A DNA stretch of 64,000 bases from an uncultured Chloroflexia bacterium (GCA_963832105.1 CAWHSS010000003.1:813615-877614); one strand, 5' to 3'. Positions 33,870 through 55,763 are shown, counted from the first letter of the stretch. Program-made: numbers and translations. Notes: a model not told the origin generated them from the letters alone.

Positions 33870-35113
33870 GCGAGCGTCCGCCAGCCGATCCGGCATCGAC
33901 GCCGCCCGAGGGCTCCCCGGTCGAAGATTCCGGTGTCCCCGCCGACGAGCGTCGGTCCGGATTCGACCGCCGCCGTGGCCAGCGCCGTCGCGACCGGCGA
34001 GGCGTCCGTGCGCCGGATCGGCGATCGGGCGCCGATCGGCGCCTCACGGAGGAGCGTCGCAGCGACGATCGGGTCAGCGCCGACTCGCTGTCGCTCGGCC
34101 GCCGGCTGCGCCAACCGAAGACGATCATCTCGCTGATCCTGCCGATCATCCTGCTGTTCTTCTTCGCCAGGGCCCTCCCCGGCTTCAAGCTCGACGCGGT
34201 CCCCGGCCTCATCCTCGAGGCGAATCCGCTGCTGCTCCTCGCGGCCTTCGCCGTGTTCTATCTCGGGTTCCCGCTGCGTGGGCTGCGCTGGGCACTGCTC
34301 ATTCGCGGCACTGGCTACCCGCTCCGCCTCCGCGATGCCACCGAGATCATCTTCATCTCGTGGCTCGTGAACTGCCTCGTTCCGGCGAAGCTCGGCGATC
34401 TCTACCGGGCGTACCTCCTGAAGATCAACAGCACGGTCTCGCTGAGCCGGACGTTCGGGACGGTGTTCATCGAGCGGGTGCTCGACCTCTTCGCGATCGT
34501 CGTATTGGGCCTGGCCTCCGGCTACTGGAGTTTCCGCGGGAAGTTGCCGGACCAGGTCCAGCTGGTGTTCCTGATCGGCGTCATCGTCGTCATCGTCCTT
34601 GCCGCCGGGCTCCTGTCGATGCGGAACTTCGGACGGCGCGTCATCCTCGCCCTGCCGCTGCCGCAAAAGATCATCGAGTTCTACGACCGGTTCGAGGAGG
34701 GGGTCTTCTCGGCCGTCGGGATGCGGGCGCTGCCTCGCCTGATTCTCCTGACCGGGCTCGTCTGGACGACCGAGGCGATGCGCCTCTTCCTCGTGGTCGA
34801 GGCGCTCGGCTTCCCCGACGTCCATCTCGGCATCAGCGGCGCCTTCTTCGTGGCGCTGACGGGATCGCTGCTTACCGCCGTGCCGTTCACGCCGGCGGGG
34901 ATCGGCGTCGTCGAGGCCGGGGTCGTTTTCGTGCTCACGGCTGTCTACGGGATCCCGCCGACGGAGGCGATCGCGATCACCCTCGTCGACCGGGTGATCA
35001 GCGTCCTCTCGATCATGCTGTTCGGCTCGATCGCCTATTGGGTCTCCGGCAAGCGACGCGGTGAAGGACTCGAGGGTCCGGGGCACAGCCCGGAGCCAGA
35101 ACCCGCCGGCTGA
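33866..35113 (+). CDS. Lysylphosphatidylglycerol-synthase TM / UPF0104 flippase-like protein with Arg-rich N-terminus
   Basis: LRGLRW..L, N.LVPAKLGDLYRAY, ERVLDL, TP.G.GVVEAG, DRVI; translationally coupled to the PHP gene by an ATGA overlap. Confidence 0.85.
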   Translation: MSERPPADPASTPPEGSPVEDSGVPADERRSGFDRRRGQRRRDRRGVRAPDRRSGADRRLTEERRSDDRVSADSLSLGRRLRQPKTIISLILPIILLFFFARALPGFKLDAVPGLILEANPLLLLAAFAVFYLGFPLRGLRWALLIRGTGYPLRLRDATEIIFISWLVNCLVPAKLGDLYRAYLLKINSTVSLSRTFGTVFIERVLDLFAIVVLGLASGYWSFRGKLPDQVQLVFLIGVIVVIVLAAGLLSMRNFGRRVILALPLPQKIIEFYDRFEEGVFSAVGMRALPRLILLTGLVWTTEAMRLFLVVEALGFPDVHLGISGAFFVALTGSLLTAVPFTPAGIGVVEAGVVFVLTAVYGIPPTEAIAITLVDRVISVLSIMLFGSIAYWVSGKRRGEGLEGPGHSPEPEPAG

Positions 35114-42101: not shown

Positions 42102-43055
42102 CTACTGGCCGCCGGACGCCGGCGACAGGTTCAGGATGATCAGGATGATGGCCGGCCCGAGGATGACGATGAAGAGCGACGGGAAGATGCACCCGACGAG
42201 CGGGAAGAGCATCTTGATCGGCGCCTTCGCGGCCTGCTCCTCGGCGCGCTGGCGGCGCTCGATGCGGAGCTGCTCGGACTGGACCTGGAGCACCTTCGAG
42301 ATCGACACGCCGAGCTGTTCGGCCTGGATGATCGCGCCGATGAAGTTCGTCAGCGGGCCGACTTCGGTTCGCGGGACGATGTCGCGCAGCGCCTCGCGGC
42401 GCGCCTTGCCGACGCGGACCTCGGCCAGCGCCCGGCGGAACTCTTCCGTCAGCGGGCCCTGGAGCTTCTCCACGACCTTGCCGAGCGCGGCATCGAAGCC
42501 GAGACCGGCCCGGACGGAGATCGTCAGCAGGTCGAGGGCGTCCGGGATCTGCAGCAGGATCGCGTGCTGGCGCTTGCGAACCCGGCCGCCGAGCCAGAAC
42601 TCGGGGATCGTGTAACCGAGCAGGAGCCCGACGACGCCCATCCCGAAGTTGAGCGGGATCGGCAGCTTCATGACGCCGACGATGACGAACAGGAGGATGA
42701 AGATGATCGCGCCGATGACGGCCGCGACAGCCTTGACGCCGAGCCAGTCGGCGACCCGCAGGTTGCCCGGGTTGCCGGCGAGCGCCAAGCGCTTCTCGGC
42801 CTTCTCCTGGAAGGAGCTGCTGGCCATGCGCGAGACGCGGCCAGAGAGCGCGGCGGCGAGCGGCCGCAGGGTGCGCTCGAGGAACGGCTGCTGAAGCTCG
42901 AGCTCTTCGAGGTTCTTCGCCTGCATCGCCCCGAGCTGGGTGAGTCGAGCCTGGACCGGATCGACCGGCGACTTGCCGGACAGGCCCAGGAAGATCAGCA
43001 GGATGGCGCCCGCCGCGACGGCGGCGACGATGATCGGAAGGAGGGTGGCGGGCAT
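42102..43055 (-). CDS. tadC: Tad pilus inner-membrane platform protein TadC
   Basis: QIPDALDLL.ISVRAGLGFDAAL, EQLGVSISKVL, R.QRAEEQAAKAPIKMLFPLV.CIFP. Confidence 0.92.
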   Translation of the reverse strand: MPATLLPIIVAAVAAGAILLIFLGLSGKSPVDPVQARLTQLGAMQAKNLEELELQQPFLERTLRPLAAALSGRVSRMASSSFQEKAEKRLALAGNPGNLRVADWLGVKAVAAVIGAIIFILLFVIVGVMKLPIPLNFGMGVVGLLLGYTIPEFWLGGRVRKRQHAILLQIPDALDLLTISVRAGLGFDAALGKVVEKLQGPLTEEFRRALAEVRVGKARREALRDIVPRTEVGPLTNFIGAIIQAEQLGVSISKVLQVQSEQLRIERRQRAEEQAAKAPIKMLFPLVGCIFPSLFIVILGPAIILIILNLSPASGGQ

Positions 43056-43059
43056 CAGC

Positions 43060-44059
43060 TCAGACCTCGATGTCGACGATTTTTCGGATGAGCATGAAGC
43101 CGATGAACATCATGAAACCGCCGACGAGGAGGAGGACGACGCCGGCCGGCAGGCCGAGAACCGCCGGCGGGTTGAGGAACATGGCGTCCATGAAGTTGGG
43201 GGCGGCGATGAACAGGAAGCCGGCCAGGCCGATCGGCAGGAAGCCGACGACATAGCCCGACAGTCGCTGCTGCGCGGTCAGGGTCTGGATCTCGCCCTTG
43301 ATCCGGACGCGCTCGCGAATCGTGTAGGCGATCGAGTCGAGGATCTCGGCGAGGTTGCCGCCGACCGTGTGCTGGATCGAGATGGCGGTTGCCATCAGCT
43401 CGAGGTCGTCCGACCGCACGCGGCGAACCATGTTCTCGAGCGCCTGCTCGAACGGCAGGCCGAGGTTGACCTCGCGGATGACCCGCCCGAACTCGATCGA
43501 GATCGGGGGTCGCGACTCGCGGACGACGAGCTCGATCGCCTGGAGGAACGACGAGCCGGCGCGGAGTGCGTTGGCGAGCAGGGTGATCGTGTCCGGAAGC
43601 TGCTTGTTGAAGGACTTGAGGCGGCCGCTCTTGCGGCGTCCGAGCCACATCCGCGGCAGGAAGAAGCCGAGCATGACCGCGACGAGCAAGGCGATCGGTG
43701 TCCGCAGCGCCGGCAGGCCGAGCGAGAAGACGATGAAGAGGAGCGGGACGCCGATGATCGAGGCGCGCCCAGATCGCGAGGAACTCGCTTGGCTTGAGCT
43801 TGAGGTCGGCGCGGGCGATGTCGCGGGCGAGGTTCGCCCCGAAGTCGCGCTGCTCGACGACCCGGTTGAGCGAGGCGAGCGCCACGCTCTGCGAGATCAT
43901 CTCGGCGATGCCGCCGCCGGCGACATTGGCCGTCGGATCCTTGCCGGACGCGTAACGCTCGAGGCGGTTGCTGACCGCGGAGCCGCTGCCGGACGTCGCA
44001 ATGCCGATGGCGATCAGGAAGATCGCCGCGGCCGCAATCCCGGCGACAATCAGCGTCAT
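43060..44059 (-). CDS. tadB: Tad pilus inner-membrane platform protein TadB (frameshift near 43770)
   Basis: FNKQLPDTITLLANALRAG.SF.QA, GGNLAEILDSIAYTIRER..IKGEIQTLTAQ.RLS. Confidence 0.92.
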
Positions 44060-44089: not shown

Positions 44090-45499
44090 TCAGTAGCTGA
44101 AGCCGAAGACGCCGGGTGGCAGGTTGATTCCCATCACCTCGAACTTCTCGACGAATTTTGGACGGATGCCGGTCGGCTTGAGCCGACCCTGGATCTTGCC
44201 TTCGACGATGCCGGTCTGCTCGAAGACGAACACGTCCTGCATGACGATGACGTCGCCTTCCATCCCCTGGACCTCGGTGATGTTGACGATCCGGCGGGAG
44301 CCGTCCTTGAGGCGGCTCTGCTGGACGATCAGGTCGACCGCGGAGGCGACCTGCTCGCGGATGGCCCGGACCGGCAGGTCCACGCCGGCCATGAGGACCA
44401 TCGTCTCGAGGCGCGACAGCATGTCGCGGGGGCTGTTGGCGTGGCCGGTGGACATCGAGCCGTCGTGGCCCGTGTTCATGGCCTGGAGCATGTCGAGCGC
44501 CTCGCCTGACCGGCACTCCCCGACGATGATGCGGTCGGGCCGCATCCGGAGGGAGTTGCGGACGAGCTCGCGGATCGGGATCGCGCCCTTGCCTTCGATG
44601 TTCGGCGGGCGCGACTCGAGGGTCACGACGTGCTCCTGGCGGAGCTGGAGCTCGGCCGCGTCCTCGATCGTCACGATCCGCTCGTCGTTCGGGATGAACG
44701 ACGACAGGACGTTGAGCGTCGTCGTCTTGCCGGAGCCGGTGCCGCCCGAGACGAAGAGGTTCAGGCGAGCCTCGACGCAGGCGCGGAGGAAGTCGAACAT
44801 GTCGGAGGTCGCGGTGCCGAACCGGATCAGGTCCTCGGTCGTGAACGGCGACGCGGAGAACTTCCGGATCGTGATCACGGGCCCGACGAGCGACAGGGGC
44901 GGGATGATGGCGTTGACGCGGGAGCCGTCGGTCAGGCGAGCGTCGACCATCGGGCTCGACTCGTCGACGCGGCGACCGATCGGGGCGATGATCCGATCGA
45001 TGATCCGCATCACGTGGTCGTCGTTCTGGAAGACGACGTTCGTCAGCTCGAGCTTGCCCGACCGCTCGATGTAGACCTGGCGGGGGCCGTTGACCATGAC
45101 CTCCGAGATCGACTCGTCGCGGAGGAGCGGCTCGAGCGGGCCGAGGCCGATGATCTCGTCGGTGATCTGCTCGAGCATCCGGACGCGCTCGGCACGGGTC
45201 AGGGCGAGGCCTTCCTCGTCGATGACCTTGCCGAAGATCTCCTCGATCTGGCGCCGGACCTCGACCTGGTTGGACAGGTCGAGCTTCGGGTCGAGATCCT
45301 GGATGACGCGGCTCTGGATCCGGAACTTGACGTCGCGGAACGACTCCCGGACGGGAGCCTGCGTCATCAGGCGCTGCGACGGCGTCGGCGGCATGCCACC
45401 GGGCGCGCCGGGGCCTCCGCCTGGAACCGCGGGAACACCGGGCGCCGGAGCGGGACCGGCCCCCGGCCGAGCGCTCTCGATCCTCTTCAGGAGTGACAT
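44090..45499 (-). CDS. cpaF: Tad pilus assembly ATPase CpaF/TadA
   Basis: GLGPLEPLL.D..ISEVMVNGP, GGTGSGKTT, TIEDAAEL, LRMRPDRIIVGECR, AMNTGHDGS. Confidence 0.96.
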   Translation of the reverse strand: MSLLKRIESARPGAGPAPAPGVPAVPGGGPGAPGGMPPTPSQRLMTQAPVRESFRDVKFRIQSRVIQDLDPKLDLSNQVEVRRQIEEIFGKVIDEEGLALTRAERVRMLEQITDEIIGLGPLEPLLRDESISEVMVNGPRQVYIERSGKLELTNVVFQNDDHVMRIIDRIIAPIGRRVDESSPMVDARLTDGSRVNAIIPPLSLVGPVITIRKFSASPFTTEDLIRFGTATSDMFDFLRACVEARLNLFVSGGTGSGKTTTLNVLSSFIPNDERIVTIEDAAELQLRQEHVVTLESRPPNIEGKGAIPIRELVRNSLRMRPDRIIVGECRSGEALDMLQAMNTGHDGSMSTGHANSPRDMLSRLETMVLMAGVDLPVRAIREQVASAVDLIVQQSRLKDGSRRIVNITEVQGMEGDVIVMQDVFVFEQTGIVEGKIQGRLKPTGIRPKFVEKFEVMGINLPPGVFGFSY

Positions 45500-45547: not shown

Positions 45548-46807
45548 TCATCGGAATGAGAACAACGACTTCTTCTGGACTGCCTTGCGCGGTTCCTCCG
45601 CCGAAACGGCGGCCCGCTCGCCCGTCACCGCGGTGGCGAGCCGGAGAATGTCCTGGGAGACCTGGGCCTCCCGGTTTGAGAGAAAGAAGGGTACCCCTCG
45701 ATTGAGGGCGTAGACGACACTTCGGCCGTCGCTGACGATCGTATGGTCGACCTTCCGGCCGATCGAGTTCTCCACATCCGTCACCCGGATACCGAGGCTC
45801 GAATCCGCCCGGTTGAGGACGAGCTTGACCTTGTTCTGCTCGTAGCCGAGCTGCTCGGCGACCTCGAGGAAGAGGCGCATGTTCTTGATGCTCGTGATCT
45901 CGAGGCTGAGCACCGTCAGAACGGTGTCGGCGACGTCGAGGATAGCCAGCGTCGTCTCGTTGAACCACGAGGTGCAGTCGACGATGACGAGGTCGTGCTC
46001 GCGGCGGAGGGCCTCGAGCACGCGCTTCACGACAGTCGGCGTGATGAGCTCGGCCATCTCCGGCGACGGCGGGGCGAGGAGCACCCGCACGCCGGCCGAG
46101 TGGTTGATGACGAACGTGTCGAGCGACTCGGGCTCACCGGCTTCGAGCTCCGGGACCAGGTCTGCGATCGACTTGTTCTTCGGGTTCAGGTTGAGCAGGA
46201 CGCCGACGTCGCCGAACTGGAACGATGCGTCGACGAGGACCACGGTCTGGCCGAGCTCGGTGGCCGCCGCGATCGCCATGTTCACCGCGATCGTCGTCCG
46301 GCCGACCCCGCCCTTCGGGCTGAAGATCGCGACGATCTGGCCGTCGCGGTCGCCGCCTCCGCCGCTGGCAGCGCCGGCCGGTCCGCCCGGGGCCATGACG
46401 GGAGCGGCGGCTCGGCGGTTGGCCTTCTCGAGCTCCCGGGCGTAGACCTGTCGGATCGAGGCCGTCAGTTCGTCGCTGCTGAAGGGCTTGACGAGGAATT
46501 CGCGGGCCCCGGCGAGCATCGAGCGGCGCAGGTAGTCCGCCTCGCCCTGGACCGACATCATCACGACCGCGGCGTCGGGGACTTCGGAGCTCATTCGCTC
46601 GGTGGCCGCGATGCCGTCCATGTCCGGCATGTTGATGTCCATCAGCACGACGCCCGGCAGGAGCTGAGCCGCCAGCTCCAGCGCCTGTGCGCCGGACGCG
46701 GCGGCCCCAACCACCTCGATGTCGCTCTCAAAGCTGAGGAGCTTCGTCAGGTGATCGCGGGTCTCCGGGATGTCGTCCACGATGAGGACTCGGATCTGAT
46801 CGGCCAT
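45548..46807 (-). CDS. cpaE: CpaE/TadZ-like protein: receiver domain plus MinD/ParA-type ATPase
   Basis: VLIVDD...LMDINMP...FLVKPF receiver; FSPKGGVGRTT, DASFQFGD, LLAPP.PE, LVLNRAD. Confidence 0.9.
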   Translation of the reverse strand: MADQIRVLIVDDIPETRDHLTKLLSFESDIEVVGAAASGAQALELAAQLLPGVVLMDINMPDMDGIAATERMSSEVPDAAVVMMSVQGEADYLRRSMLAGAREFLVKPFSSDELTASIRQVYARELEKANRRAAAPVMAPGGPAGAASGGGGDRDGQIVAIFSPKGGVGRTTIAVNMAIAAATELGQTVVLVDASFQFGDVGVLLNLNPKNKSIADLVPELEAGEPESLDTFVINHSAGVRVLLAPPSPEMAELITPTVVKRVLEALRREHDLVIVDCTSWFNETTLAILDVADTVLTVLSLEITSIKNMRLFLEVAEQLGYEQNKVKLVLNRADSSLGIRVTDVENSIGRKVDHTIVSDGRSVVYALNRGVPFFLSNREAQVSQDILRLATAVTGERAAVSAEEPRKAVQKKSLFSFR

Positions 46808-46953: not shown

Positions 46954-47850
46954 TTACTGAGCCGGGATGATGGCCTCGACGAGCTCCGGTCGGAGGACGC
47001 CATAGCCACCGTCGACGAGGGTCTTGAGGATCACGCCGGTCGTTCCGGCCGGCAGGCTGACGACGGGGTTGCCCTGCGCGTCGAGGAAGTCCCTCGAGTT
47101 GCGGAGGAGGAGGGAGATGTCGCCGTCGATCTGGGAGTACTTGATGAGCTCCGCCTGCTGGGCGGTGACGGCAAGGATGACGAGCTCCTGGCCCTCATCG
47201 CTGAGCGTCGTCGTCGGCGCCTGGGCGGCGCTGCCGGACGGCGCTGCGTTGGTCCGGTTGGTCGCGGTGGTCGGCGGTCGGATCGTGCCGATGACCTGCA
47301 TGCCTTCGATGAGGAGCTTGACGCTCGTGCTGTTCAGGCCCTGGACGACGGTGATCGACTCGTCCTCGGGGTTGAGGGTCACGACCGGGAACTTGTCGCC
47401 GGTGATGCCGAGGACGAGGTCGACGTAGTCGCCCGTCTTGATGAGCGTGCCGACGCCGTTGACCTGGTTGACCTGGAGGGAGATCGCGCGCTTGCCCTCG
47501 GGGACGACGATGTTGTCGATCGGTTTCCAGGAAGTCCGCGCGGCTGAGCTGGGCGCCGTTCGTGATGGGCTGTCGAACCTTCTGGCCGACGATCTGGCTC
47601 GGCGTCGCCGAAGGCGCCCGGCTTGCGGTCGGCCGGCTTGACGTGCTGCGGTCGTCAGCATTCCGTCGTGCAGCGTCGCGCCCAGGGGGATGTCCTGGGC
47701 CGCGACGACGGTCGTGACGGGGGCGGCGGCGGATGCCGGCGGGCCGTGGGCCTGGGTCCGGTCATTGCTCAGAACGATGACGATTCCGACGAACGCGACG
47801 ATCGCCAGGAACACGCCGATGAGCAGCACGAGCCGATTGGAACGCTTCAA
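46954..47850 (-). CDS. cpaB: Flp pilus assembly protein CpaB/RcpC (probable compensating frameshifts mid-gene)
   Basis: N-terminal TM, VVAAQDIPLG (SAF), PEGKRAISLQV..V.GVG.LIK.GD.VDLVL; TTG start at 47850. Confidence 0.85.
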   Translation of the reverse strand: MKRSNRLVLLIGVFLAIVAFVGIVIVLSNDRTQAHGPPASAAAPVTTVVAAQDIPLGATLHDGMLTTAARQAGRPQAGRLRRRRARSSARRFDSPSRTAPSSAARTSWKPIDNIVVPEGKRAISLQVNQVNGVGTLIKTGDYVDLVLGITGDKFPVVTLNPEDESITVVQGLNSTSVKLLIEGMQVIGTIRPPTTATNRTNAAPSGSAAQAPTTTLSDEGQELVILAVTAQQAELIKYSQIDGDISLLLRNSRDFLDAQGNPVVSLPAGTTGVILKTLVDGGYGVLRPELVEAIIPAQ

Positions 47851-47911
47851 GTTGGATCTCCCGAGACTTGTGACAGGTGGCACCACTGTAGCACCGCTCA
47901 AGAGCGGCGCG

Positions 47912-47920
47912 ACTATACCA
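47912..47920 (-). promoter_or_regulatory. Extended -10 (TG-g-TATAGT) for the cpaB operon
   Basis: Reverse complement reads TTTGGTATAGT about 60 nt upstream of cpaB. Confidence 0.55.
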
Positions 47921-48017
47921 AAGGGCTAGGACCATTAGGAGGATTAGGCAGGAAACCAAGCGTGAAGAAAGGTGATTCGCAAGGTTGCCCGGCGGCCCCC
48001 AGACCGTTGACAAAAGG

Positions 48018-48062: not shown

Positions 48063-48257
48063 TCAGTTCTGGACTGACTGCAGCTGGCTACCGATAACGC
48101 TGAGCTTGTCGCTTACCTGGCTGCCCAGGAAGATGAGGCCCACGATAGCAACGATGGCGATGAGCGCAAGAATGAGTGCATATTCGGCCAGTCCCTGGCC
48201 GTCGTCCGCGCGGCGGACGCGGTTCACGAGAGCGGAGAGCTGCCGTAGCAACGACAT
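48063..48257 (-). CDS. flp: Flp family type IVb/IVc pilin 1
   Basis: MSLL...DDG|QGLAEYALILALIAIVAIVGLIFLG (Glu at +5, Tyr at +6); RBS GGAAAGGAGG. Confidence 0.93.
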   Translation of the reverse strand: MSLLRQLSALVNRVRRADDGQGLAEYALILALIAIVAIVGLIFLGSQVSDKLSVIGSQLQSVQN

Positions 48258-48341
48258 CCGCTTCACCTCCTTTCCGAGAGGATCCCCGACCCCCGAGGAT
48301 GGACTCTTTGCGATTCGCCGGGCATAAAGGCCGGTGCGTCC

Positions 48342-48369
48342 AAGGTAGGACCCCGGGTTGGGCTGTCAA
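48342..48369 (-). promoter_or_regulatory. Promoter for flp1 (TTGACA-16-TACCTT)
   Basis: Perfect -35 with TAnnnT -10 on the minus strand. Confidence 0.65.
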
Positions 48370-48419
48370 TAGCCCGAACGGTAGGGGCGTCGCGCCAGCG
48401 CACCGGAAGGATATGAGAA

Positions 48420-48450
48420 GGGCCGCAGCCGCCGTGGGCGGGTGCGGCCC
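48420..48450 (-). terminator. Hairpin terminator downstream of flp2
   Basis: GGGCCGCA/TGCGGCCC stem extended by GCCGCC/GGCGG, followed by TTCT on the minus strand. Confidence 0.6.
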
Positions 48451-48477
48451 CCTGTAGGTCGATATGATCGGAGAACT

Positions 48478-48648
48478 CTAGATCGAGTTACCGACGTTGC
48501 TGAGGATGCTCGAGACCTGGCCGCCCAGGAAGATGAGGGCAACGATCGCGATGATCGCGATCAGGGCGAGGATCAGCGCGTACTCGGCGAGACCCTGACC
48601 CTTCTCCTCGCGGCGGAAGGACGAGATAAGAGCGTGAAGAACTGACAT
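48478..48648 (-). CDS. flp: Flp family pilin 2
   Basis: MSVLHALISSFRREEKG|QGLAEYALILALIAIIAIVALIFLGGQVSSILSNVGNSI; RBS GGAAAGGAGG. Confidence 0.93.
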   Translation of the reverse strand: MSVLHALISSFRREEKGQGLAEYALILALIAIIAIVALIFLGGQVSSILSNVGNSI

Positions 48649-48699
48649 GTCTTGGATCACCTCCTTTCCGGAAGTCTCCCGGAATACCGGGGGCTCGTT

Positions 48700-48729
48700 A
48701 CCGTACGGGGCATGCTTCATGGGTGTCAA
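48700..48729 (-). promoter_or_regulatory. Promoter for flp2 (TTGACA-18-TACGGT)
   Basis: Perfect -35 with TAnnnT -10 on the minus strand. Confidence 0.6.
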
Positions 48730-48800
48730 GGTGACGACTTACCTATGCGGTGCGTCCTCGGCAACGCGGCTTTGAACGCCGCGTTGAAACCCTAAGAATC

Positions 48801-48834
48801 GAAAAACCGCCGGGGCCCGAAGGCTCCGGCGGTT
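48801..48834 (-). terminator. Intrinsic terminator downstream of flp3
   Basis: AACCGCCGG...TTCG loop...CCGGCGGTT followed by TTT on the minus strand. Confidence 0.8.
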
Positions 48835-48852
48835 CTTTGTCAAGCGACTCGG

Positions 48853-49023
48853 TTAGATCGAGTTACCGACGTTGCTGAGGATGCTCGAGACCTGTCCGCC
48901 CAGGAAGATGAGGGCGACGATCGCGATGATCGCGATGAGGGCGAGGATCAGCGCGTACTCCGCGAGTCCCTGGCCTTCCTCGTCGCGGCGAAGCGAGGCG
49001 AGGAACTGGTGAACGAGTGCCAT
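48853..49023 (-). CDS. flp: Flp family pilin 3 (56 aa, missing from the ORF track)
   Basis: Manual translation MALVHQFLASLRRDEEG|QGLAEYALILALIAIIAIVALIFLGGQVSSILSNVGNSI; RBS AGGAG. Confidence 0.93.
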   Translation of the reverse strand: MALVHQFLASLRRDEEGQGLAEYALILALIAIIAIVALIFLGGQVSSILSNVGNSI

Positions 49024-49147
49024 GTGATGTTTCTCCTGGATGAGTACTCACCCCCAGATGAGGGCTTCGCCACTATGCAGCGGCCTCTCCGGGATGACCA
49101 CTAGGCAATTCGTACCGAACTCATAGGCCCCTCGGCTGCCGCCGCGC

Positions 49148-49305
49148 TCACGACGCAGCCTCGATCGCCTGGCCGATTGCCTCAAGGACGGCCGACAGCG
49201 TCCCGCCGAAGAACACGAGCACGACGGTGGCGACGACGGCCGACAGGGCGAGGATCAGGCCGTACTCGACGAGACCCTGGCCACGTTGCGCCCCTCATGG
49301 CCCAT
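49148..49305 (-). CDS. flp: Divergent Flp-like pilin 4 (needs one extra G in the GGGG run near 49290 to join its ATG)
   Basis: Manual translation ...QRG|QGLVEYGLILALSAVVATVVLVFFGGTLSAVLEAIGQAIEAAS*; missing from the ORF track. Confidence 0.75.
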
Positions 49306-49313
49306 CGGCCCGG

Positions 49314-50515
49314 TCAGGCGTGCTCTTCGGAGGGCAGGTCGACGCCGATCACGAGCTCCGCGCCGCCGGCGAGCAGCTCCGCCGAGATCCCGACCGTCGC
49401 CGCCCGCTGCTGGATCTCCCGCCAGGCGGTGGCGGGAAGCGCCACGATCGCCGCGTTGCGGGCGCTCTCGGCCGCGGCCTCGGCCTGCTCGCGGCGATCC
49501 TCGATCATCGCCGCGAGGGCCGGCGGCAGGTCCTTGCCTCCGGCCGGCGTGGCTGCCTGGGCGGCGGCCTCGCGCTCGGCCTCTTCCACGGCACTCGTCC
49601 GGTCGCGGGTCGCGGAGACGCGTCCCTCGATTCGCTCGTCCGTCCAGTCGAGGCGCAGCGAGACGTGATCCGGCGACGCGGCGACGTAGCCGTCCAGCGC
49701 CTCGTCGAGGATCCGGAACAGGCCGCTCTCGAGCTCCATCGGCAGGCGCCGGTCCGTACCCATCGATTCGAACTCGACCGTCACGCCGGCTCGCTGGCCT
49801 CGCTCGCGGACCGAGCGGCGGAGCGTCGGCACGAGGCCGAGATCGTCGAGGACCATCGGCCGGACGTCGAAGATGAAGGACTTCGTCGCGTCGAGCGTCT
49901 GCTGGACCATCGCGACGAGCTGGCGAACCTCGCCCCGGGCCATCTCCGGGTCCCGTGCGCACGAGCCGCTCGACGATCTGGGCCTGGAGGACGATGTTCG
50001 TGAGGCTCTGGGCCGGGCCGTCGTGCATCGCCCGGGCGATCTCCCGGCGGAGGTCTTCCTGGGCCGTCAGGACGATCCGCGACATTCCGGGGGCGCCGTC
50101 GTCGGCGGCACGCTTGGCTCCGCTGTCGGCCGCCGGAAGCTCCGCGCCTTCTTCTGACCGCGACGCCGAGGCTGGCAGCCATCTCGCCCAGCGATTCGCG
50201 GAATCGGGCGAGGATCTTGCGCTTGCCGTCGAGGACCTCGACCTGTGCCTCCATGACGGCGGCGCGGCGGGTCAGGTTGACGAGCTGGGCATTGAGCGCG
50301 ATGACATCCTCGGACGGGGTTGCCTCGGGCAGGCTGGCGAGCTTGTCGGTCGCCTGGGTCCGTTTGAGCTCGTGCCGCTCCGCCTCCGTCCGGGCCTGCG
50401 TGACGAGCATGTCGATCTCGGCGAGCTCACCGTCGAGGGTCGCGAGGTCGCGGCCGACGCGCGCCGTCAGCTCCCCGAGGGAATCCGGTGTCGCGCGAGG
50501 TTCTACCGAGGACAC
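49314..50515 (-). CDS. Soluble DegS-like HisKA_3 protein with degenerate ATP-binding domain (two apparent frameshifts)
   Basis: Coiled-coil N-terminus; H-box REIARAMHDGPAQSLTNI; DVRPMVLDDLGL; N-box Asn and DxGxG absent. Confidence 0.8.
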
Positions 50516-50525
50516 GGCCGTGCGA

Positions 50526-51263
50526 TCAATCCTCCGGCATCCGGATCCAGCCCTGGCGCATCGCGTAGACGACGGCCTGCGTCCGGTCGTTGACGGACAG
50601 CTTGCGGAGGATCGAGCTCATGTGGTTCTTGACGGTCTGCTCGCTGATCGAGAGGGCGTAGGCGACCTGCTTGTTCGTCATGCCCTGGGCGATGTTGTCG
50701 AGGATCTCGACCTCGCGGGGCGAGAGCGGCGCGAAGATCGGGGCGGCCTCCTGGCCGTAGACCGCGAGCTCACGGAACTCCTTGAGGACGCGAGACGCGA
50801 CGGCCGGCTTGGCGAACACCTTGTCGTTGATCAGGTACTCGCCGTTCACGACGCGCCGGATGATCGTGACGAGGTCATCCGGGCCGACGTCCTTGAGGAT
50901 GAAGGCGGCCGCGCCGGCCTTGATCGCGTCGAACAGGGCGTCCTCGTCCTCGTTGGCGGCCAGGACGATGATCCCGGTCGAGGGCAGCTCGCGCTTGATC
51001 CGCTGGGTGGTCTCGATGCCGCCCGGCGAGCTGAGCGAGAGGTCCATGAGGATGATGTCCGGCGACGTCTCGATCGCCCGATCGACCGCCGATCGGCTGT
51101 CGTCGGCCTCCGCAACCACGAGGAAGTCGGATTCGTGGCCGAGGATGTTGGCGATCCCGACGCGGAACAGGGCGTGGCCGTCGACGATGAGGATCTTCGT
51201 CTGCTCGCCCTCCGCGCGACGGTCCGGTCCGCCACGGCGGCGTTCAGGTCCCGAATAGTTCAT
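50526..51263 (-). CDS. NarL/DegU-like response regulator (receiver plus LuxR HTH)
   Basis: KILIVDGH...LMDLSL...FILKD; LSPREVEIL...GMTNKQVA..L.ISEQTVKNHMSSILRKLSVNDRTQAVV; RBS AGGAG before ATG 51263. Confidence 0.92.
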   Translation of the reverse strand: MNYSGPERRRGGPDRRAEGEQTKILIVDGHALFRVGIANILGHESDFLVVAEADDSRSAVDRAIETSPDIILMDLSLSSPGGIETTQRIKRELPSTGIIVLAANEDEDALFDAIKAGAAAFILKDVGPDDLVTIIRRVVNGEYLINDKVFAKPAVASRVLKEFRELAVYGQEAAPIFAPLSPREVEILDNIAQGMTNKQVAYALSISEQTVKNHMSSILRKLSVNDRTQAVVYAMRQGWIRMPED

Positions 51264-51274
51264 CAGGCGGTCTC

Positions 51275-52492
51275 CTATGTTCCCATCGGGATCGCCAGCC
51301 GGACGGTCGTTCCACTGTCCGGTTGCGAGTGCACCTCGAAATGGGCCCCGATCAGCTCTGCGCGCTCTTGCATGAATTGAAGCCCGAAGTTGCGGCGGCC
51401 ACGAGCCGCCACCGCTCCGACATCGAACCCTCTGCCGTCGTCGCGAACCGTGAGGACCCATTCCTCACCGTCAATGACGCTCGCGACGATGACAGATGAC
51501 GCCCCTCCGTGCTTGCGCACATTCTGAAGGGCTTCCTGGACGACCCGCAGCACAACCGTCTGCTGGGCCTCAGTCAGGCGGTCCGACGGAGCTGTCAGCT
51601 CGGTCGTGATCGCCAGGCCCGTCAGGGCGGTCGTCCGGCCGACCGCGTCGGCCACGGCGCCGTCCAGGCCCAGCTCATCGAGAACGGGCGGCCGGAGCTG
51701 GCTGATGAACGTCCTGACCGACCCGAGCTCGCGCCGGAGCAGCTCCCGGAGGAACCGCAGCTCCGTCCGGGCCAGCCGATCGTCGTGGTCGATCACCCGC
51801 TCGATGTACTCGACCTGGAAGATCGCGTTCGACAGGACCTGGGCCGGCCCATCGTGGATCTCCTGGGCCAGTCGGGATCGCTCCGACTCCTGGGCCTCGA
51901 CGATCCGCATCTGGATCTCGGTTGGCAGGTTCTCGCCCCGGTTCAGGCGGCCTGAGTCGCCGCGCTGCAGGAACGTCCCGGTGCTCTCGAGATTGCGGAG
52001 CGCGACGTCCAGCTTGGCGAGCTCGGTCTGATGGCTGCCGAGCTCGTGGCCGAGGTTCGTGACGTCCGACCGCAGGGCGCGGACGCGATCGTCCTCGGCG
52101 CCGGAGCGGGCGGGTTCGGCGGTGTCTGCGGCGTGCGCGTCGGCGCTGCCCCCGGATTCGCCGTCCGCGGCCCTCACGAGCCGGGGCCGGCTGTCCGTGG
52201 CTCGCCGCTCGAGTGCGTCGAGCTCGTCCGTGAGTGCCTGCCAGCGCGTCAGTTCATCGTTGTACGCGGCGCGGTACCGCTCGCGGATGCTCCGGAGCGC
52301 GTCGGCGCTCTGGCTGACCGCCGCGCTTGCCTCGGCGTGCAGCGCGTCGATCGACGCTGCGCTGACCTCGCGCAGGTCGCGCGGGTCCCGAGTCGCGCGT
52401 GGATCGTGCGCCGGGGGCGCGTCCTCGTTGCGGGTATCGGCATCCGTGCGTGCTGCGTCCATCGGCTTCCGAGTATAGGGGTCGCCACTCAT
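51275..52492 (-). CDS. Soluble DegS-like sensor histidine kinase (HisKA_3 plus HATPase)
   Basis: QESERSRLAQEIHDGPAQVLSN, QLRPPVLDELGL, EALQNVRKH (N box), VRDDGRGF (G1), FGLQFMQERA, GTTV; ATG overlaps the upstream stop. Confidence 0.92.
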   Translation of the reverse strand: MSGDPYTRKPMDAARTDADTRNEDAPPAHDPRATRDPRDLREVSAASIDALHAEASAAVSQSADALRSIRERYRAAYNDELTRWQALTDELDALERRATDSRPRLVRAADGESGGSADAHAADTAEPARSGAEDDRVRALRSDVTNLGHELGSHQTELAKLDVALRNLESTGTFLQRGDSGRLNRGENLPTEIQMRIVEAQESERSRLAQEIHDGPAQVLSNAIFQVEYIERVIDHDDRLARTELRFLRELLRRELGSVRTFISQLRPPVLDELGLDGAVADAVGRTTALTGLAITTELTAPSDRLTEAQQTVVLRVVQEALQNVRKHGGASSVIVASVIDGEEWVLTVRDDGRGFDVGAVAARGRRNFGLQFMQERAELIGAHFEVHSQPDSGTTVRLAIPMGT

Positions 52493-54118
52493 GGGCAATC
52501 CAGCCTGTACACACGGGTGTTCTCGAGCGCGCGGGCGAGTTTTGGATCGGCCGGAGTCCCGATATCGATCTCGTCGAAGCAATCGGCGCTCGGGGCGTCC
52601 GTATCGAGGATCTCCGGCCAGTCGCCGTGATCGTCGCCGTGCAGGATCAGGAGCGACGTTCCCTTGAAGTGGCTCGCGAGATCGATGACGTCCGCGGGAC
52701 TCTCGGCGGGCAGTGCCAGCGCCCTGGCCCCGGTCGATTCGGACAGCCAGATCGGGAAGTTCGTGATGATCGGGCCCTGGTCCTCGAGCGGCAGGCCGGC
52801 GGCATCCATCTGCGCGGCGAGCGCCTCGTAGCGCTGCGCCAGGCCGACCGACAGCCCACCGAACGATGGCATCAGCGCGGCCATGAAGAGCAGCGAGCCG
52901 AAGATCGTCAGCGCCCCGCCAAGCCACGCGACGGGTCGCGTCCAGCCCCGCATCTGCCCGACGCGCTCGATCGCGGCGTCGAGCGCCAGCAGCGCACAGA
53001 CGATCAGCAGGACGTGGGCCGGCCCGGCGGCATGGAGGTAGGTCCCCCACGTCGTCGACACCGGGAACAGGAGGCTCGTGACGAGGAACGTCGTGATGGA
53101 CAGGACCGCCAGCGGCAGGATCGCCCGGAGGCGGATGAAGAACGGCAGCGCGATCAGCCCGAGGAACGCGGCCGGGATGCCCGGCAGCAGCAGGACCGTG
53201 AAGAGGTTGTGGTAGAGGCCCTCGGCGCGCATCAGCAGGAGGCGCTGGGGACCCTCGGCGAGATAGCGCGCGACCGTCGGCGGGTCGTTCCAGGCGAAGA
53301 TGTCGAAACCGGTCACCGACAGGGCGTTGGACAGGGCCTGGCCCGGCAGCGGGTTCCCGAACACGAGCCAGTCCCGGACCATCCACGGGACGAAGATCGC
53401 GAGGGCGACGGCCGCCGGCATCGCGATGAGGGCGAGCTTCCGGCTCCGCTCGAGGACAGGCGTGCGCCAGACGGCGACGACCCAGGCGAGGCCGATGAAC
53501 GCCGCCTCGTTGCGGGTCAGGGCCGCGAGGCCGATCAGGACGCCGAGTGTGACGACCTTCGGGTTGGCAAGGCTCACCCGCCCGGCGTCGCGAAGGATGC
53601 GCGGCATCAGGATGCACGCGGCGAGGGCCAGCGCCGCGAAGGGCATCGTCGAGTCGGGCAGGGCGGAGTGGAGGACGAGCGGCAGGTAGACCGCGCTCGT
53701 CAGGCCCGCCCCGAGCGCCAGGACGCGCGTGCGGCTGAGCGACAGTCGCCGTTCCGTGGCGGCGTCGGCGCCGAGGCGCCAGGCCAGGACCGGGACGATC
53801 GCGCCGACCACCACCGAGCTCAGCTGCGCCGACTGGAACGTCGAGCCGAACAGCGCCATCGGGATCGCGGCGAGGAACGTCGGCAACGGCAGCCAGACCT
53901 CGAAGGCGGGCCGGGGGAAGGACAACGGCGGGGTGCCGTAGCTCCACAGCGCGTCGCTCGTCAGGCCCTGGCCCTCGAGGAGGTTGCGAGCCACGCCGAC
54001 GTAGTAGGCGGTGTCCTCGGGCTGGGGGAACACGACCAGCGACGCGGCCACGATCGCGGATCGCCAGCGCGATCACGAACACGAGGGCGGCCGACAGGAA
54101 GATCTCGCGGCGTCTCAC
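52489..54118 (-). CDS. GT-C fold (GT39/PMT-like) membrane glycosyltransferase (frameshift near 54055)
   Basis: PEDTAYYVGVARNLLEGQG, LAALTRNEA, WMVRDWLVFGNPLP, many TM segments. Confidence 0.8.
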
Positions 54119-55763
54119 GGTGTCGCTCCGGCCGCCGTCACGGCGCAGCGCGGGTCAGCGGCGCTGACGCAGACCGGGTAGATCGCGGCACTCGTGTCGC
54201 CGCCCGGTCCGGGGATCCCGATGAGCCGCGGGCCGATCCACCGTGGCCTGGCCGCGCCTGTGAACACAGGTTCCAGCGCCGCCACCGAATCGTCGCTCTC
54301 GATGACCAGCCACTCGATCCGATAGGCATCGGCGACCTCTTCGATCGTGTCGAGCGGATCGTTCGGCGTCACGACCCCGCCGTGACCCGTGTGGTAGCGG
54401 TAGCCCGCGGCGTCGATCGTCATGAGGCGGGCATCAGGCGCCGCGCCGGCAAGGTCCAGTGCCGCCGCCACGGCCCGCCGTTCCGTCCGTTCGCGATCCC
54501 AGCGCCCCTGGACCAGCAGGGCGGTCGGGATGGCCGCAACGACCGCGAATCCGACGGCCGCGGTCACGAAGAGCTTCGTCGCGGCCTCCCGATCCCAGGC
54601 CCGCCGCCGCGCCGCGATCCAGGCGACAGCGACGACGATCCCCTCGAGGGCCAGCAGATACGCGTGTGGCGCCAGGGCGACGGCCGAATGGATGAAGGTG
54701 CCGCCCGGGACGTGGACGGCCGACACGAGCGCCGAGAACGCGAACAGGATGGCGGCGTAGGTCAGGAACGGTCCGAAGTCCACCGACCGTCGCCGAGCCC
54801 ACCCGCCGATCAGCATGAACGGCAGCAGGATCCCGCCGCGCAACGAGCGTCGTGAAGATGCCGACAGCGGCCACGAAGCCGCCCACGCGGCTCAGGAGCA
54901 GCGGACCGATGCCCTGGCCGAGCAGGTGGCTGAGCGTCGCCGGCGTCGTGATCGAGTTCCACTCCTCGATCGAGCGGATGTAGAGGACCTTGCCCGATGC
55001 CGTCGACGGCGAGAGCTGGCCGAAGACCTCGAGCTGGCGGATCCACCACGGCACCATGACCGCGAGGAACAGCCCGAAGCACGCGGCGGCCGCCCAGACC
55101 GGGATCGCCGGTCGCCGGGCGCCACCTGACCGCCACGCCCGCCACCGGTCATAGAGGAAGGCGAGACCCAGGGTCCCGCCGACGAGCAGGCCGTCGTTCC
55201 GCGACAGCGTCGCCAGGCCGACCAGCAGCCCGCCCAGCGCGAACGCCCGAGCGTGCCCGCGCAGCCCGCGAGCGGCCATCCAGAGGGCCCCGGCGACGAG
55301 CGGCTGATAGAGGGAGAAGTTGTCGGGCTGGGTCATGTAGACGAGCGACAACGCCGGGATCGCCGTCAGGACGCCGGCCCCGACACGACACGAGCGGGCG
55401 CAACCCGGCGTCCCGCCCGATCGCCCACGCGAGCGGCGCGGCGAGCGCCCCGATGATGGCGAACGGCAGCGCCGACGCGACGGGCGTCGGCCCGAGCAGC
55501 CAGATGAACGGGACCTGGACGAGCGAAGCGAGCGGCATCCAGTGGGCGTTGCTCGGAATCGGGAGCGTCGGGTCGGCCGGGATCGTCCCGCCGACCTCGG
55601 CGAAGATCCAGATGAAGTCGACCTGGAAGCCCTGTCCGCCGGCCACCGATCGGGCGACATCGACGTAGTAGTACGAGTCGGGATACGCAGGGTCGGGGAA
55701 GAGGGCAATCAGTACCAGCCGGACCGCGAGGGCGAGCACGTACAGGGCGATCGGGGTTCGCAC
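54115..55763 (-). CDS. GT-C fold (GT39/PMT-like) membrane glycosyltransferase, paralog of the downstream gene (frameshifted)
   Basis: PDSYYYVDVARSVAGGQG, HWMPLAS, LATLSRNDG, PWWIRQLEVFG, LMTIDAAG C-terminal domain. Confidence 0.8.

Follow-up and report, generated by a model that had tools for sequence, protein, structure and literature searches.

Two kinase-type proteins and an arginine-tailed response regulator directly upstream of the Flp pilin array in a Chloroflexota Tad pilus locus

The window analysed here, by which we mean the whole stretch of 64,000 nucleotides from an uncultured Chloroflexia bacterium (GCA_963832105.1 CAWHSS010000003.1:813615-877614), carries on its minus strand a gene block in which an intact histidine kinase (HK1), a response regulator (RR) and a second, kinase-dead histidine kinase relative (HK2) are followed by four flp pilin genes and by the Tad pilus genes cpaB-cpaE-cpaF-tadB. 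The G+C content is 65-72% across the window, positions are counted from its first letter, and the signalling and pilin features are as follows.

51275..52492, minus strand: HK1, 405 aa, soluble HisKA_3 histidine kinase, intact.
50526..51263, minus strand: RR, 245 aa, NarL/LuxR-type response regulator with a receiver (REC) and a GerE helix-turn-helix (HTH) domain.
51216..51263, minus strand: arginine-rich N-terminal tail of RR, MNYSGPERRRGGPDRR, an ARR-like tandem of YSGPERR and RGGPDRR (ARR, the published arginine-rich motif); tail peptide sequence MNYSGPERRRGGPDRRAEGE.
49314..50515, minus strand: HK2, composite of 401 aa, kinase-dead HisKA_3 protein (pseudo-histidine kinase).
49148..49299, minus strand: flp4, divergent mini-pilin (GQGLVEYGLIL...) with a very short leader.
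48853..49023, minus strand: flp3, major Flp pilin of 56 aa, with a terminator hairpin downstream (48840-48802).
48478..48648, minus strand: flp2, pilin whose mature part equals that of flp3.
48063..48257, minus strand: flp1, pilin of 64 aa, with a terminator at 48046-48018.

A sequence-only reading of this DNA had described three co-oriented genes running with gaps of 11 bp or less into flp4. The shared orientation holds, as do the gaps within the trio (11 nt between HK1 and RR, 10 nt between RR and HK2), whereas the distance from HK2 to flp4 is 8-14 nt and is set by the choice of ATG. Among relatives, the order GT39-GT39-HK1-RR-HK2-flp4-flp(2-3)-flp1-cpaB-cpaE-cpaF-tadB, in which the GT39 genes encode glycosyltransferases, was found in 12 of the 12 genus loci fetched, and the order GT39-GT39-HK1-RR-HK2-flp(n)-cpaB-cpaE-cpaF-tadB, with one to six pilin genes, in 80 of the 80 Limnocylindria loci kept, wherever the contig was long enough. 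GT39a lies upstream in most of these 80 loci and flp4 directly follows HK2 in every one of them, with HK2-flp adjacency also present in other Chloroflexota. The 80 loci were chosen via HK2, and therefore only the neighbouring genes count as independent evidence. Because the order of the trio recurs beside flp/tad genes in relatives, the proposal escapes the objection that its own author had named as fatal, a trio that is not conserved next to these genes, and the gene arrangement is not a product of chance. More broadly, at least 571 stretches in species-representative genomes were confirmed as relatives of HK2, and the HK2 profile matched 4303 metagenomic proteins, the best 120 of which carry only PF07730 and are named "DegS" by the Joint Genome Institute (JGI) pipelines.

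HK1 has the features of a HisKA_3 (NarL-family) sensor kinase, namely a phospho-acceptor His in its DHp domain and a HATPase_c domain that bears N, G1 and G2 boxes. Both HisKA_3 (56.4 bits) and HATPase_c (47.1 bits) score above cut-off in Pfam, the motifs read HDGPAQ (H-box), EALQNVRKH (N box), DDGRGF (G1) and FGL (G2), and the N and G boxes are kept in orthologues. The N-terminal region is a coiled coil, where a weak match of coiled-coil type (ATG16) also falls, and a comparison with NCBIfam gave only generic NarL-family kinase matches, below cut-off. On this motif evidence HK1 is the sole ATP-using kinase of the locus, and the earlier description of it as intact is correct. Neither HK1 nor HK2 contains a hydrophobic segment, as expected of soluble kinases of the DegS type, and in architecture the label "DegS/DegU-like" given to the trio is apt. 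Membership of the DegS/DegU family was rejected, though, since neither kinase matched PF05384, the DegS N-terminal family (Pfam, E <= 0.01), and no DegS or DegU equivalog appeared among the NCBIfam matches for the kinases and the regulator, the kinase matches lying far below cut-off.

HK2 differs from HK1 in its ATP-binding half. The composite protein matches HisKA_3 alone in Pfam (52.5 bits), with no HATPase_c match, and none of 10 plus 58 orthologues has the N-box Asn, the DxGxG motif or the G2 box, so that it lacks the marks of a catalytic ATP-binding domain while it carries those of an H-box/DxxxQ phosphatase motif. The HDGPAQ sequence (H166, D167, G168, P169, A170 and Q171), with the phospho-acceptor His and the D...Q pair inside it, does not vary in the 58 sequences, and the DHp motif FIFDVRPMVLDDLGLVPTLRR is likewise invariant among orthologues. 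Such a D...Q pair after the His is the phosphatase motif of HisKA_3 proteins, established for NarX-type kinases. The place of the ATP lid is taken by an insert of about 55 residues with a conserved KDLPPAL...M..DRR pattern. Structurally, an AlphaFold2 (AF2) model of HK2, at a predicted local distance difference test score (pLDDT) of 75, consists of a helical hairpin (residues 13-121), a DHp and a CA-like alpha/beta domain, and Foldseek placed DesK (E 3e-8 over about 250 aligned columns) and the ATP-binding (CA) domain of VraS (TMt 0.74) at the top, with DivL (4q20) and the phosphotransferase ChpT (4qpk) ranked lower. A sequence search against the PDB returned the DesK DHp only, the CA-like character emerging from the fold search alone. 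Ratios of nonsynonymous to synonymous substitution (dN/dS, Nei-Gojobori) lie at 0.10 in the DHp, 0.20 in the pseudo-CA core and 0.34 in the insert, and these values together with the invariant motifs rule out a decaying pseudogene family. The degenerate ATP pocket noticed by the sequence-only reading is thereby confirmed: the N and G boxes are missing throughout the orthologues, the predicted fold is retained, and purifying selection persists. Judged by its sequences and model, HK2 is a conserved functional protein that is unable to use ATP in the usual way.

Evolutionarily, HK2 is older than its dead ATP pocket. When 400 Chloroflexota genomes were sampled for HK2 homologues, the full-length degenerate form was present in 22 of the 23 sampled genomes of the window's family, and a second Limnocylindria family had a shorter degenerate form; in two loci of the latter (L123 and L124) HK2 is 345 aa long, degenerate, and without the large insert. 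Elsewhere in the phylum, weaker matches extended over the coiled coil and the DHp into the beginning of the CA domain, with an HK2-like gene directly before flp in about 23 of 30 fetched loci from about 20 families, often followed by cpaE-cpaF-tadB. At least one of the three ATP-domain motifs searched (N box, G1, G3) was recognisable in the 28 of these loci that lie outside Limnocylindria, and for this reason the homologues there look like working kinases. In at least seven other families a NarL-type RR lies immediately upstream of the HK2 homologue, and in a few families the HK1-RR-HK2 trio occurs with both kinases intact. Three large complete Chloroflexota genomes (loci L129, L130 and L131) carry an intact DegS-like kinase directly upstream of one to four flp genes. 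Across the 84 residues that surround the His, the HK2 DHp shares 51-56% identity with the flp-linked kinases versus 39% with HK1, and because of this difference we conclude, from DHp comparison, that HK2 and not HK1 is the orthologue of an old phylum-wide flp-linked kinase whose ATP pocket was lost within Limnocylindria. By the same comparison, HK1 is a separate kinase lineage from HK2.

Downstream of the pilin genes, the clustered CpaB/RcpC, CpaE/TadZ, CpaF/TadA and TadB/C genes identify the locus as a Tad (type IVc) assembly cluster, with TadB assigned from synteny.

46954..47850, minus strand: cpaB (RcpC family), Pfam RcpC 53.6 bits, TTG start at 47850.
45548..46807, minus strand: cpaE/tadZ, N-terminal receiver plus MinD/ParA-type ATPase (Response_reg 95.9 bits, AAA_31 57.8 bits).
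44090..45499, minus strand: cpaF/tadA secretion ATPase, Pfam T2SSE 218 bits.
43055..44059, minus strand: tadB-like membrane platform gene, from synteny alone, with no Pfam match at the threshold used.

The receiver of CpaE (LIVDD ... VLMDINMP ... MMSVQG ... FLVKP) is canonical, with the acidic pair DD, the phospho-accepting D, the S and the K in place, and it remains canonical in all Chloroflexota loci examined, including those that have a kinase but no regulator nearby; its best NCBIfam matches are to the NarL family. TadZ is usually described with an atypical receiver domain (ARD) (summarised in bioRxiv 10.64898/2026.07.08.737194). The protein found here resembles ARD-bearing TadZ/CpaE in joining an N-terminal receiver fold to a MinD/ParA-type ATPase within a tad operon and differs from it in that all phosphorylation residues are present, such that the domain may be a true phospho-acceptor rather than a protein-interaction domain. 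Since these residues are all there, CpaE is a plausible direct phospho-acceptor, and we consider its receiver an equally plausible partner, which the sequence-only reading overlooked.

The four flp genes all encode the G/XXXXEY motif, as GQGLAEYALIL or GQGLVEYGLIL, followed by a hydrophobic helix, and are thus Flp/Fap pilins by motif; the Flp_Fap score of flp3 in Pfam is 23.9 bits, below the cut-off of 32.2. Two non-coding regions of the locus are strongly conserved.

49024..49116, minus strand: flp3 promoter and leader, from an alignment of 40 loci.
47851..47985, minus strand: cpaB promoter and leader, from an alignment of 42 loci.

The flp3 promoter of the window contains GGTACGAATTGCCTAGTG (49116-49099) and a -10 element CATAGT (49077-49072), and its leader consists of a 5' hairpin CCCTC-N4-GGGGG (49064-49051) and GAGTACTCATCCAGGAG with the Shine-Dalgarno (SD) sequence (49049-33). 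Across the 40 loci, the first major pilin gene is preceded by GGTAC...CTAGTG upstream of a TATAGT -10 element with no -35 consensus, and in relatives its leader forms a hairpin CCCTC-N4-6-GAGGG that shows compensatory changes and precedes GAGTACTCATCCAGGAGG, which contains a palindrome; this 5' stem-loop is possibly mRNA-stabilising. The cpaB promoter of the window is made up of a direct repeat ACCTTGC-N5-ACCTTTC (47985-47967), GGTCCTAGCCCTTTGGTATAGT (47933-47912) and a -10 region GGTCCTAG...TATAGT, after which the leader carries an invariant 25-mer, TGCTACAGTGGTGCCACCTGTCACA (47893-47869, holding GGTGC-N6-GGTGC), and the SD sequence GGGAG. Promoter and leader together are nearly invariant in the family, and over the 42 loci the consensus is ACCTTGC-N5-ACCTT(G/T)C, GGTCCTAGCCCnTTGGTATAGT, a variable 5' hairpin and the 25-mer. 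An annotated-looking TTG start for cpaB at 47901 falls within this conserved leader, and the TTG at 47850 is the likely start codon because a conserved SD precedes it.

The remaining pilin genes have promoters of another kind. For flp2, TTGACA (48729-48724) and TACGGT (48705-48700) are separated by N18, with GCACC 24 nt upstream of the -35 element, and for flp1, TTGACA (48369-48364) is followed by N16 and TACCTT; in general, TTGACA-N16-18-TAnnGT lies about 85-90 nt before the start codon of each middle and last pilin gene, with hairpins between genes. These promoter-like elements and intergenic hairpins support separate transcription of the pilins, as the sequence-only reading had supposed. 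A sigma-70 scanner at strict settings returned no promoter, and the TTGACA/TAnnGT promoters came from the comparative alignment. A search of the pilin and cpaB leaders for riboswitches, of the cyclic di-GMP (c-di-GMP) type or other, gave only terminator-like partial matches (Rfam, E <= 1), those partial matches including the terminator region downstream of flp3. A palindromic operator GGTGC-N6-GCACC ahead of the flp2 and flp1 promoters was considered and set aside; its half-sites are enriched and positionally fixed, the full palindrome occurs in 4 of 87 promoters, and it is only a lead.

RR itself is a NarL/LuxR-type regulator by its domains (Response_reg 83.5 bits and GerE 79.6 bits in Pfam), with best NCBIfam matches to NarL and NarP that fall below equivalog cut-offs. 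The AF2 model gives confident REC and HTH domains, and the HTH half is almost invariant across 46 orthologues. The receiver keeps the phospho-accepting Asp and the Lys, its acidic pair is DG in the window and in near relatives only, 47 of 54 orthologues having DD, and Ala takes the place of the beta4 Thr/Ser in 52 of 54, a combination that departs from the canonical receiver and upholds the sequence-only reading on this point. In the two loci of the second Limnocylindria family mentioned above, the RR orthologue has no arginine-rich tail and its acidic pair is AD-S (VVLADSS).

Taken together, we posit with a probability of about 0.5 that the locus is the Limnocylindria version of a Chloroflexota-wide phospho-signalling module for Tad/Flp pili, with HK1 as its kinase and HK2 as its phosphatase or phosphoryl sink. 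HK1 would phosphorylate the NarL-type RR, which would act on the conserved promoter of the first major pilin gene, on that of cpaB, or on both, the conserved elements of flp3 and cpaB being the obvious candidate targets. HK2, through its DHp helix, would most likely be a dedicated phosphatase or phosphoryl sink whose target would be RR and possibly also the canonical receiver of CpaE/TadZ, and the kinase and phosphatase functions would thereby be split between two proteins. We assign HK2 this role because ATP binding has been lost while the phospho-acceptor His and the H-D-x-x-x-Q motif have been kept, and the near-invariance of the RR HTH and the strong non-coding conservation at the flp3 and cpaB promoters add to the case. 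The phosphorylation partners, the phosphatase activity of HK2 and the DNA targets of RR are what we infer here. Several observations weigh against this proposal. An RR that lacks the beta4 Thr/Ser switch residue may be weakened in classical phospho-activation. The promoters of the middle and last pilin genes have a near-consensus -35 element and may not need an activator. The GCACC/GGTGC half-site is of limited occurrence, being present in only about a third to two-thirds of these promoters, GCACC lying 23-24 nt upstream of the -35 element in about a third of the 87 promoters and GGTGC at -35/-36 in about a sixth. No further copies of the conserved flp3 and cpaB elements were found genome-wide, and therefore no regulon backs the assignment of binding sites. 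Finally, the phosphatase, relay and heterodimer roles of HK2 are inseparable at the level of sequence.

The relay role would make HK2 a phosphotransferase of the Spo0B/ChpT type, passing phosphate from HK1 to the RR receiver, to the His of HK2 and on to the CpaE/TadZ receiver, or from HK1 to HK2 to CpaE, such that one signal would switch both pilin transcription and pilus assembly. Spo0B of Bacillus and ChpT of Caulobacter and Brucella are derived from kinases and consist of a DHp-type bundle with a phospho-His and a CA-like domain that does not bind ATP. The architecture of HK2, a DHp with its His joined to a degenerate CA-like domain without ATP motifs, is compatible with theirs, and ChpT was among its fold matches, relay function remaining putative for HK2; unlike them, HK2 has a textbook HisKA_3 H-box with DxxxQ, a long N-terminal coiled coil and the insert of about 55 aa. 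The CpaE receiver, canonical here and throughout the Chloroflexota loci examined and NarL-type by its best matches, also speaks for a relay, and its plausibility as an acceptor keeps this reading alive. So does the arrangement in many families, where an intact HK2 homologue is followed by flp and by cpaE with its receiver and no regulator lies nearby, which makes the CpaE receiver the natural ancestral partner of the HK2 homologue, as does the phylum-wide conservation of the HK2 DHp. On the other side stand the families, at least seven, in which the NarL-type RR immediately upstream of the HK2 homologue forms a classical cognate arrangement, and the retention of DxxxQ, which is a requirement for phosphatase activity and which, to our knowledge, a pure phosphotransferase has no need of. 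The relays that we know of, moreover, use single-domain or hybrid-kinase receivers as intermediates and not DNA-binding regulators. On balance we regard a phosphorelay through HK2 as doubtful, albeit deserving of attention.

The sequence-only reading had favoured another scheme, in which the dead subunit sets the output of an HK1-HK2 heterodimer, the RR tail binds c-di-GMP, and the two inputs jointly gate pilin expression. Its most distinctive element is the tail, which in the window's family follows the consensus [DE]-[YF]-x-G-x-[DE]-R-R-R-G-G-P-D-R-R and which is absent from RR orthologues outside that family. Among 72 orthologues (family f1), 59 have a two-unit and 13 a one-unit form, with G5, R8, R9 and R10 invariant. 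The published counterpart is the ARR of Cle proteins, a tandem of [Y/F]xGP[D/E][R/K]R units flanked by Arg and Asp that is known from 302 proteins, of which 294 are alphaproteobacterial (PMC5677366), and a minimal CleD peptide binds c-di-GMP via DRR-x11-(R/K)RxxD, peptides without both terminal acidic residues failing to bind (PMC7382256). Like the Cle ARR, the RR tail is a short disordered Arg-rich peptide beside a receiver (predicted disordered here, at pLDDT 40-47, as is the apo ARR peptide) and is built of such units, YSGPERR being an exact ARR unit and RGGPDRR matching at six of seven positions with the aromatic residue missing. The pattern of conservation, in which Y and G are kept, P varies and RRR is invariant, fits the alanine scan of CSP, a peptide that sequesters c-di-GMP. 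The YxGPxRR extension thus does resemble the published motif (PMC5677366, PMC7382256), as had been claimed, and the resemblance, in sequence terms, is real but partial. The Cle ARR is C-terminal to a CheY-like receiver, whereas the RR tail is N-terminal on a DNA-binding regulator of the NarL type; the CleD units stand six residues apart, whereas those of the tail are contiguous and lack the second aromatic residue as well as the Arg and Asp on the flanks; and the Cle ARR is almost wholly alphaproteobacterial, whereas the tail comes from Chloroflexota, where c-di-GMP binding is putative. Measured against the geometry that CleD requires, with its acidic residues on both flanks, the tail has a spacer of 5 instead of 11 and lacks an Asp at +3 behind its second RR.

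The genomic background is favourable to such an effector, with about 22 GGDEF domains in the window's genome, several of them fragmented, and no PilZ domains in that genome. From this census c-di-GMP signalling seems extensive, and with many GGDEF domains and no PilZ, other c-di-GMP effectors must therefore exist. A genome-wide regular-expression scan for further ARR-like tagged proteins found, besides RR, one flippase-like protein, the rest being off-frame Arg-rich noise; the flippase-like protein, at about 33947-34072 (G000:C3:847573), has an N-terminal run of SGxDRR and [DE]RR (ERRSGFDRRRGQRRRDRRGVRAPDRRSGADRR). As to the heterodimer, there are precedents for pseudo-kinases that modulate true kinases, such as DivL of Caulobacter, a pseudo-histidine kinase that is the non-catalytic partner of a true kinase/response regulator pair (PMC4211667); DivL has lost its His (to Tyr) and kept its CA domain, whereas HK2 is the reverse, with the His kept and the ATP motifs lost. 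Against the scheme as a whole, the 13 orthologues without a second unit tell, as does the finding that tail variants and the HK2 insert showed no covariation, and a heterodimer, in whose favour none of the observations on the locus itself tells, is not favoured for two DHp domains that are 39% identical and of different lineages. We consider binding of c-di-GMP by the RR tail a minority prospect of some substance, and the full scheme of heterodimer and second messenger unlikely. Bolder still would be a dual-input, dual-output switch that combines an ARR-type c-di-GMP tail on the NarL-family RR with HK2 as phosphotransferase between RR and TadZ/CpaE. If it held, this would be the first ARR outside CheY-like proteins and essentially the first outside Alphaproteobacteria, with pilin transcription and pilus assembly coupled in one phosphorelay; we consider it improbable.

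That HK2 works at all in this strain could be questioned from the assembly. As assembled, HK2 is spread over three frames, with the N-terminal coiled coil, the H-box segment and the remainder each in its own frame in a three-frame translation, a splitting that the sequence-only reading overlooked. Alignment with four close relatives placed single-base insertions private to the window near 50155 and 49955, and a third, near 49288, puts the start codon of flp4 out of frame with the pilin body. Taken at face value, these three private insertions would mean that HK2 and flp4 are truly pseudogenised and that only HK1 and RR operate. The same kind of damage, however, extends to neighbouring essential pilus genes: the cpaB segment 47665-47531 is out of frame versus relatives, and GT39a lies in three frames or pieces, with private insertions of 1 nt at about 55385 and 54839. 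Frame breaks also fragment GGDEF genes in other parts of the window's genome, and the genome, at 2.5 Mb in 4 contigs, has a completeness score of only 72%. Within 14.5 kb of syntenic DNA, private indels of 1-2 nt number 13 in the window and 7 to 36 in each of five relatives, whose assemblies comprise just a few large contigs; many relatives are long-read metagenome-assembled genomes (MAGs). Apart from the indels, the HK2 coding sequence contains no stops and shows no decay, and in most genus relatives HK2 is one intact open reading frame of about 400-435 aa, with up to 94% identity. Because such indels also occur in cpaB, GT39a, GGDEF genes and every long-read relative compared, and because HK2 is intact in relatives, consensus error in a long-read MAG is the most likely source of the broken frames of HK2 and flp4, and pseudogenisation is a poor candidate. 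Among loci L036 (G009:C14:182000-195053) and L079, one relative carries the entire locus a second time, with 36 small private indels and probably on a poorly polished duplicate contig, and another near relative has its own single-base insertion within HK2.

The upstream end of the block comprises two glycosyltransferase genes, which belong to the same transcription unit.

54115..55709, minus strand: GT39a, PMT/ArnT-like GT-C glycosyltransferase, first of the co-directional block, from tblastn pieces.
52489..54051, minus strand: GT39b, 520-aa membrane PMT_2-like glycosyltransferase, Pfam PMT_2 E 9.7e-5, below the curated cut-off.

The stop codon of GT39b overlaps the ATG of HK1 (ATGA), and PMT/GT39-like GT-C genes accompany the kinase-flp module in several Chloroflexota lineages (L127, L132, L138, L139 and L148). 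That the module mainly controls these co-transcribed GT-C enzymes, and with them envelope or pilin glycosylation, while the flp adjacency is operon history, is suggested by the translational coupling of HK1 to GT39b and by GT39-like genes that travel with the module in the family and in several other lineages, and is very unlikely given that kinase-flp is the linkage best conserved in the phylum and occurs in many families with no GT genes, and that non-coding conservation is strongest at the flp3 and cpaB promoters.

How, then, does the proposed phospho-signalling module compare with known systems? PprB of Pseudomonas aeruginosa is a LuxR/NarL-type regulator. Two-component systems beside tad loci that control flp are known as PprAB in that species (PMC3510237) and from Pectobacterium (PMC3767616; also Bernard et al. 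2009, as cited in these papers), and there as here the system lies beside tad and governs expression of the Flp pilin and of tad, regulation having been demonstrated experimentally in those bacteria, whereas for the Chloroflexota locus it is putative. They have no second, kinase-dead kinase, no Arg-rich tail, no canonical TadZ receiver and no GT-C genes, and they belong to another phylum with another envelope type. DegS-DegU of Bacillus subtilis shares with the locus a soluble HisKA_3 kinase with an N-terminal coiled coil and a NarL-family regulator for surface behaviour, and differs in that here two kinases flank the regulator, one of them catalytically dead. We found no description of this module in Chloroflexota or Limnocylindria in the open literature, nor any of Tad pilus regulation in Chloroflexota. 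The finding is thus real and ordinary in kind, as a two-component system for pili, yet it is unusual in design and apparently undescribed.

Limnocylindria are abundant soil bacteria, and for that reason the control of surface attachment in them is ecologically interesting. Tad pili are the only pili of many Chloroflexota and candidates for adhesion and gliding (PMC7332563). For this phylum, the data define a phylum-wide linkage between a soluble kinase and flp, and they offer a natural case in which, after a second kinase had become available, that kinase lost ATP binding and purifying selection preserved its His and its phosphatase motif. The locus, through four small soluble proteins, makes directly testable the long-standing question of whether the kinase and the phosphatase or relay functions of a bifunctional sensor can be split between two proteins. 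If the RR tail binds c-di-GMP, the ARR module would be extended to transcription factors, and a lineage with many cyclases and no PilZ would gain an effector.

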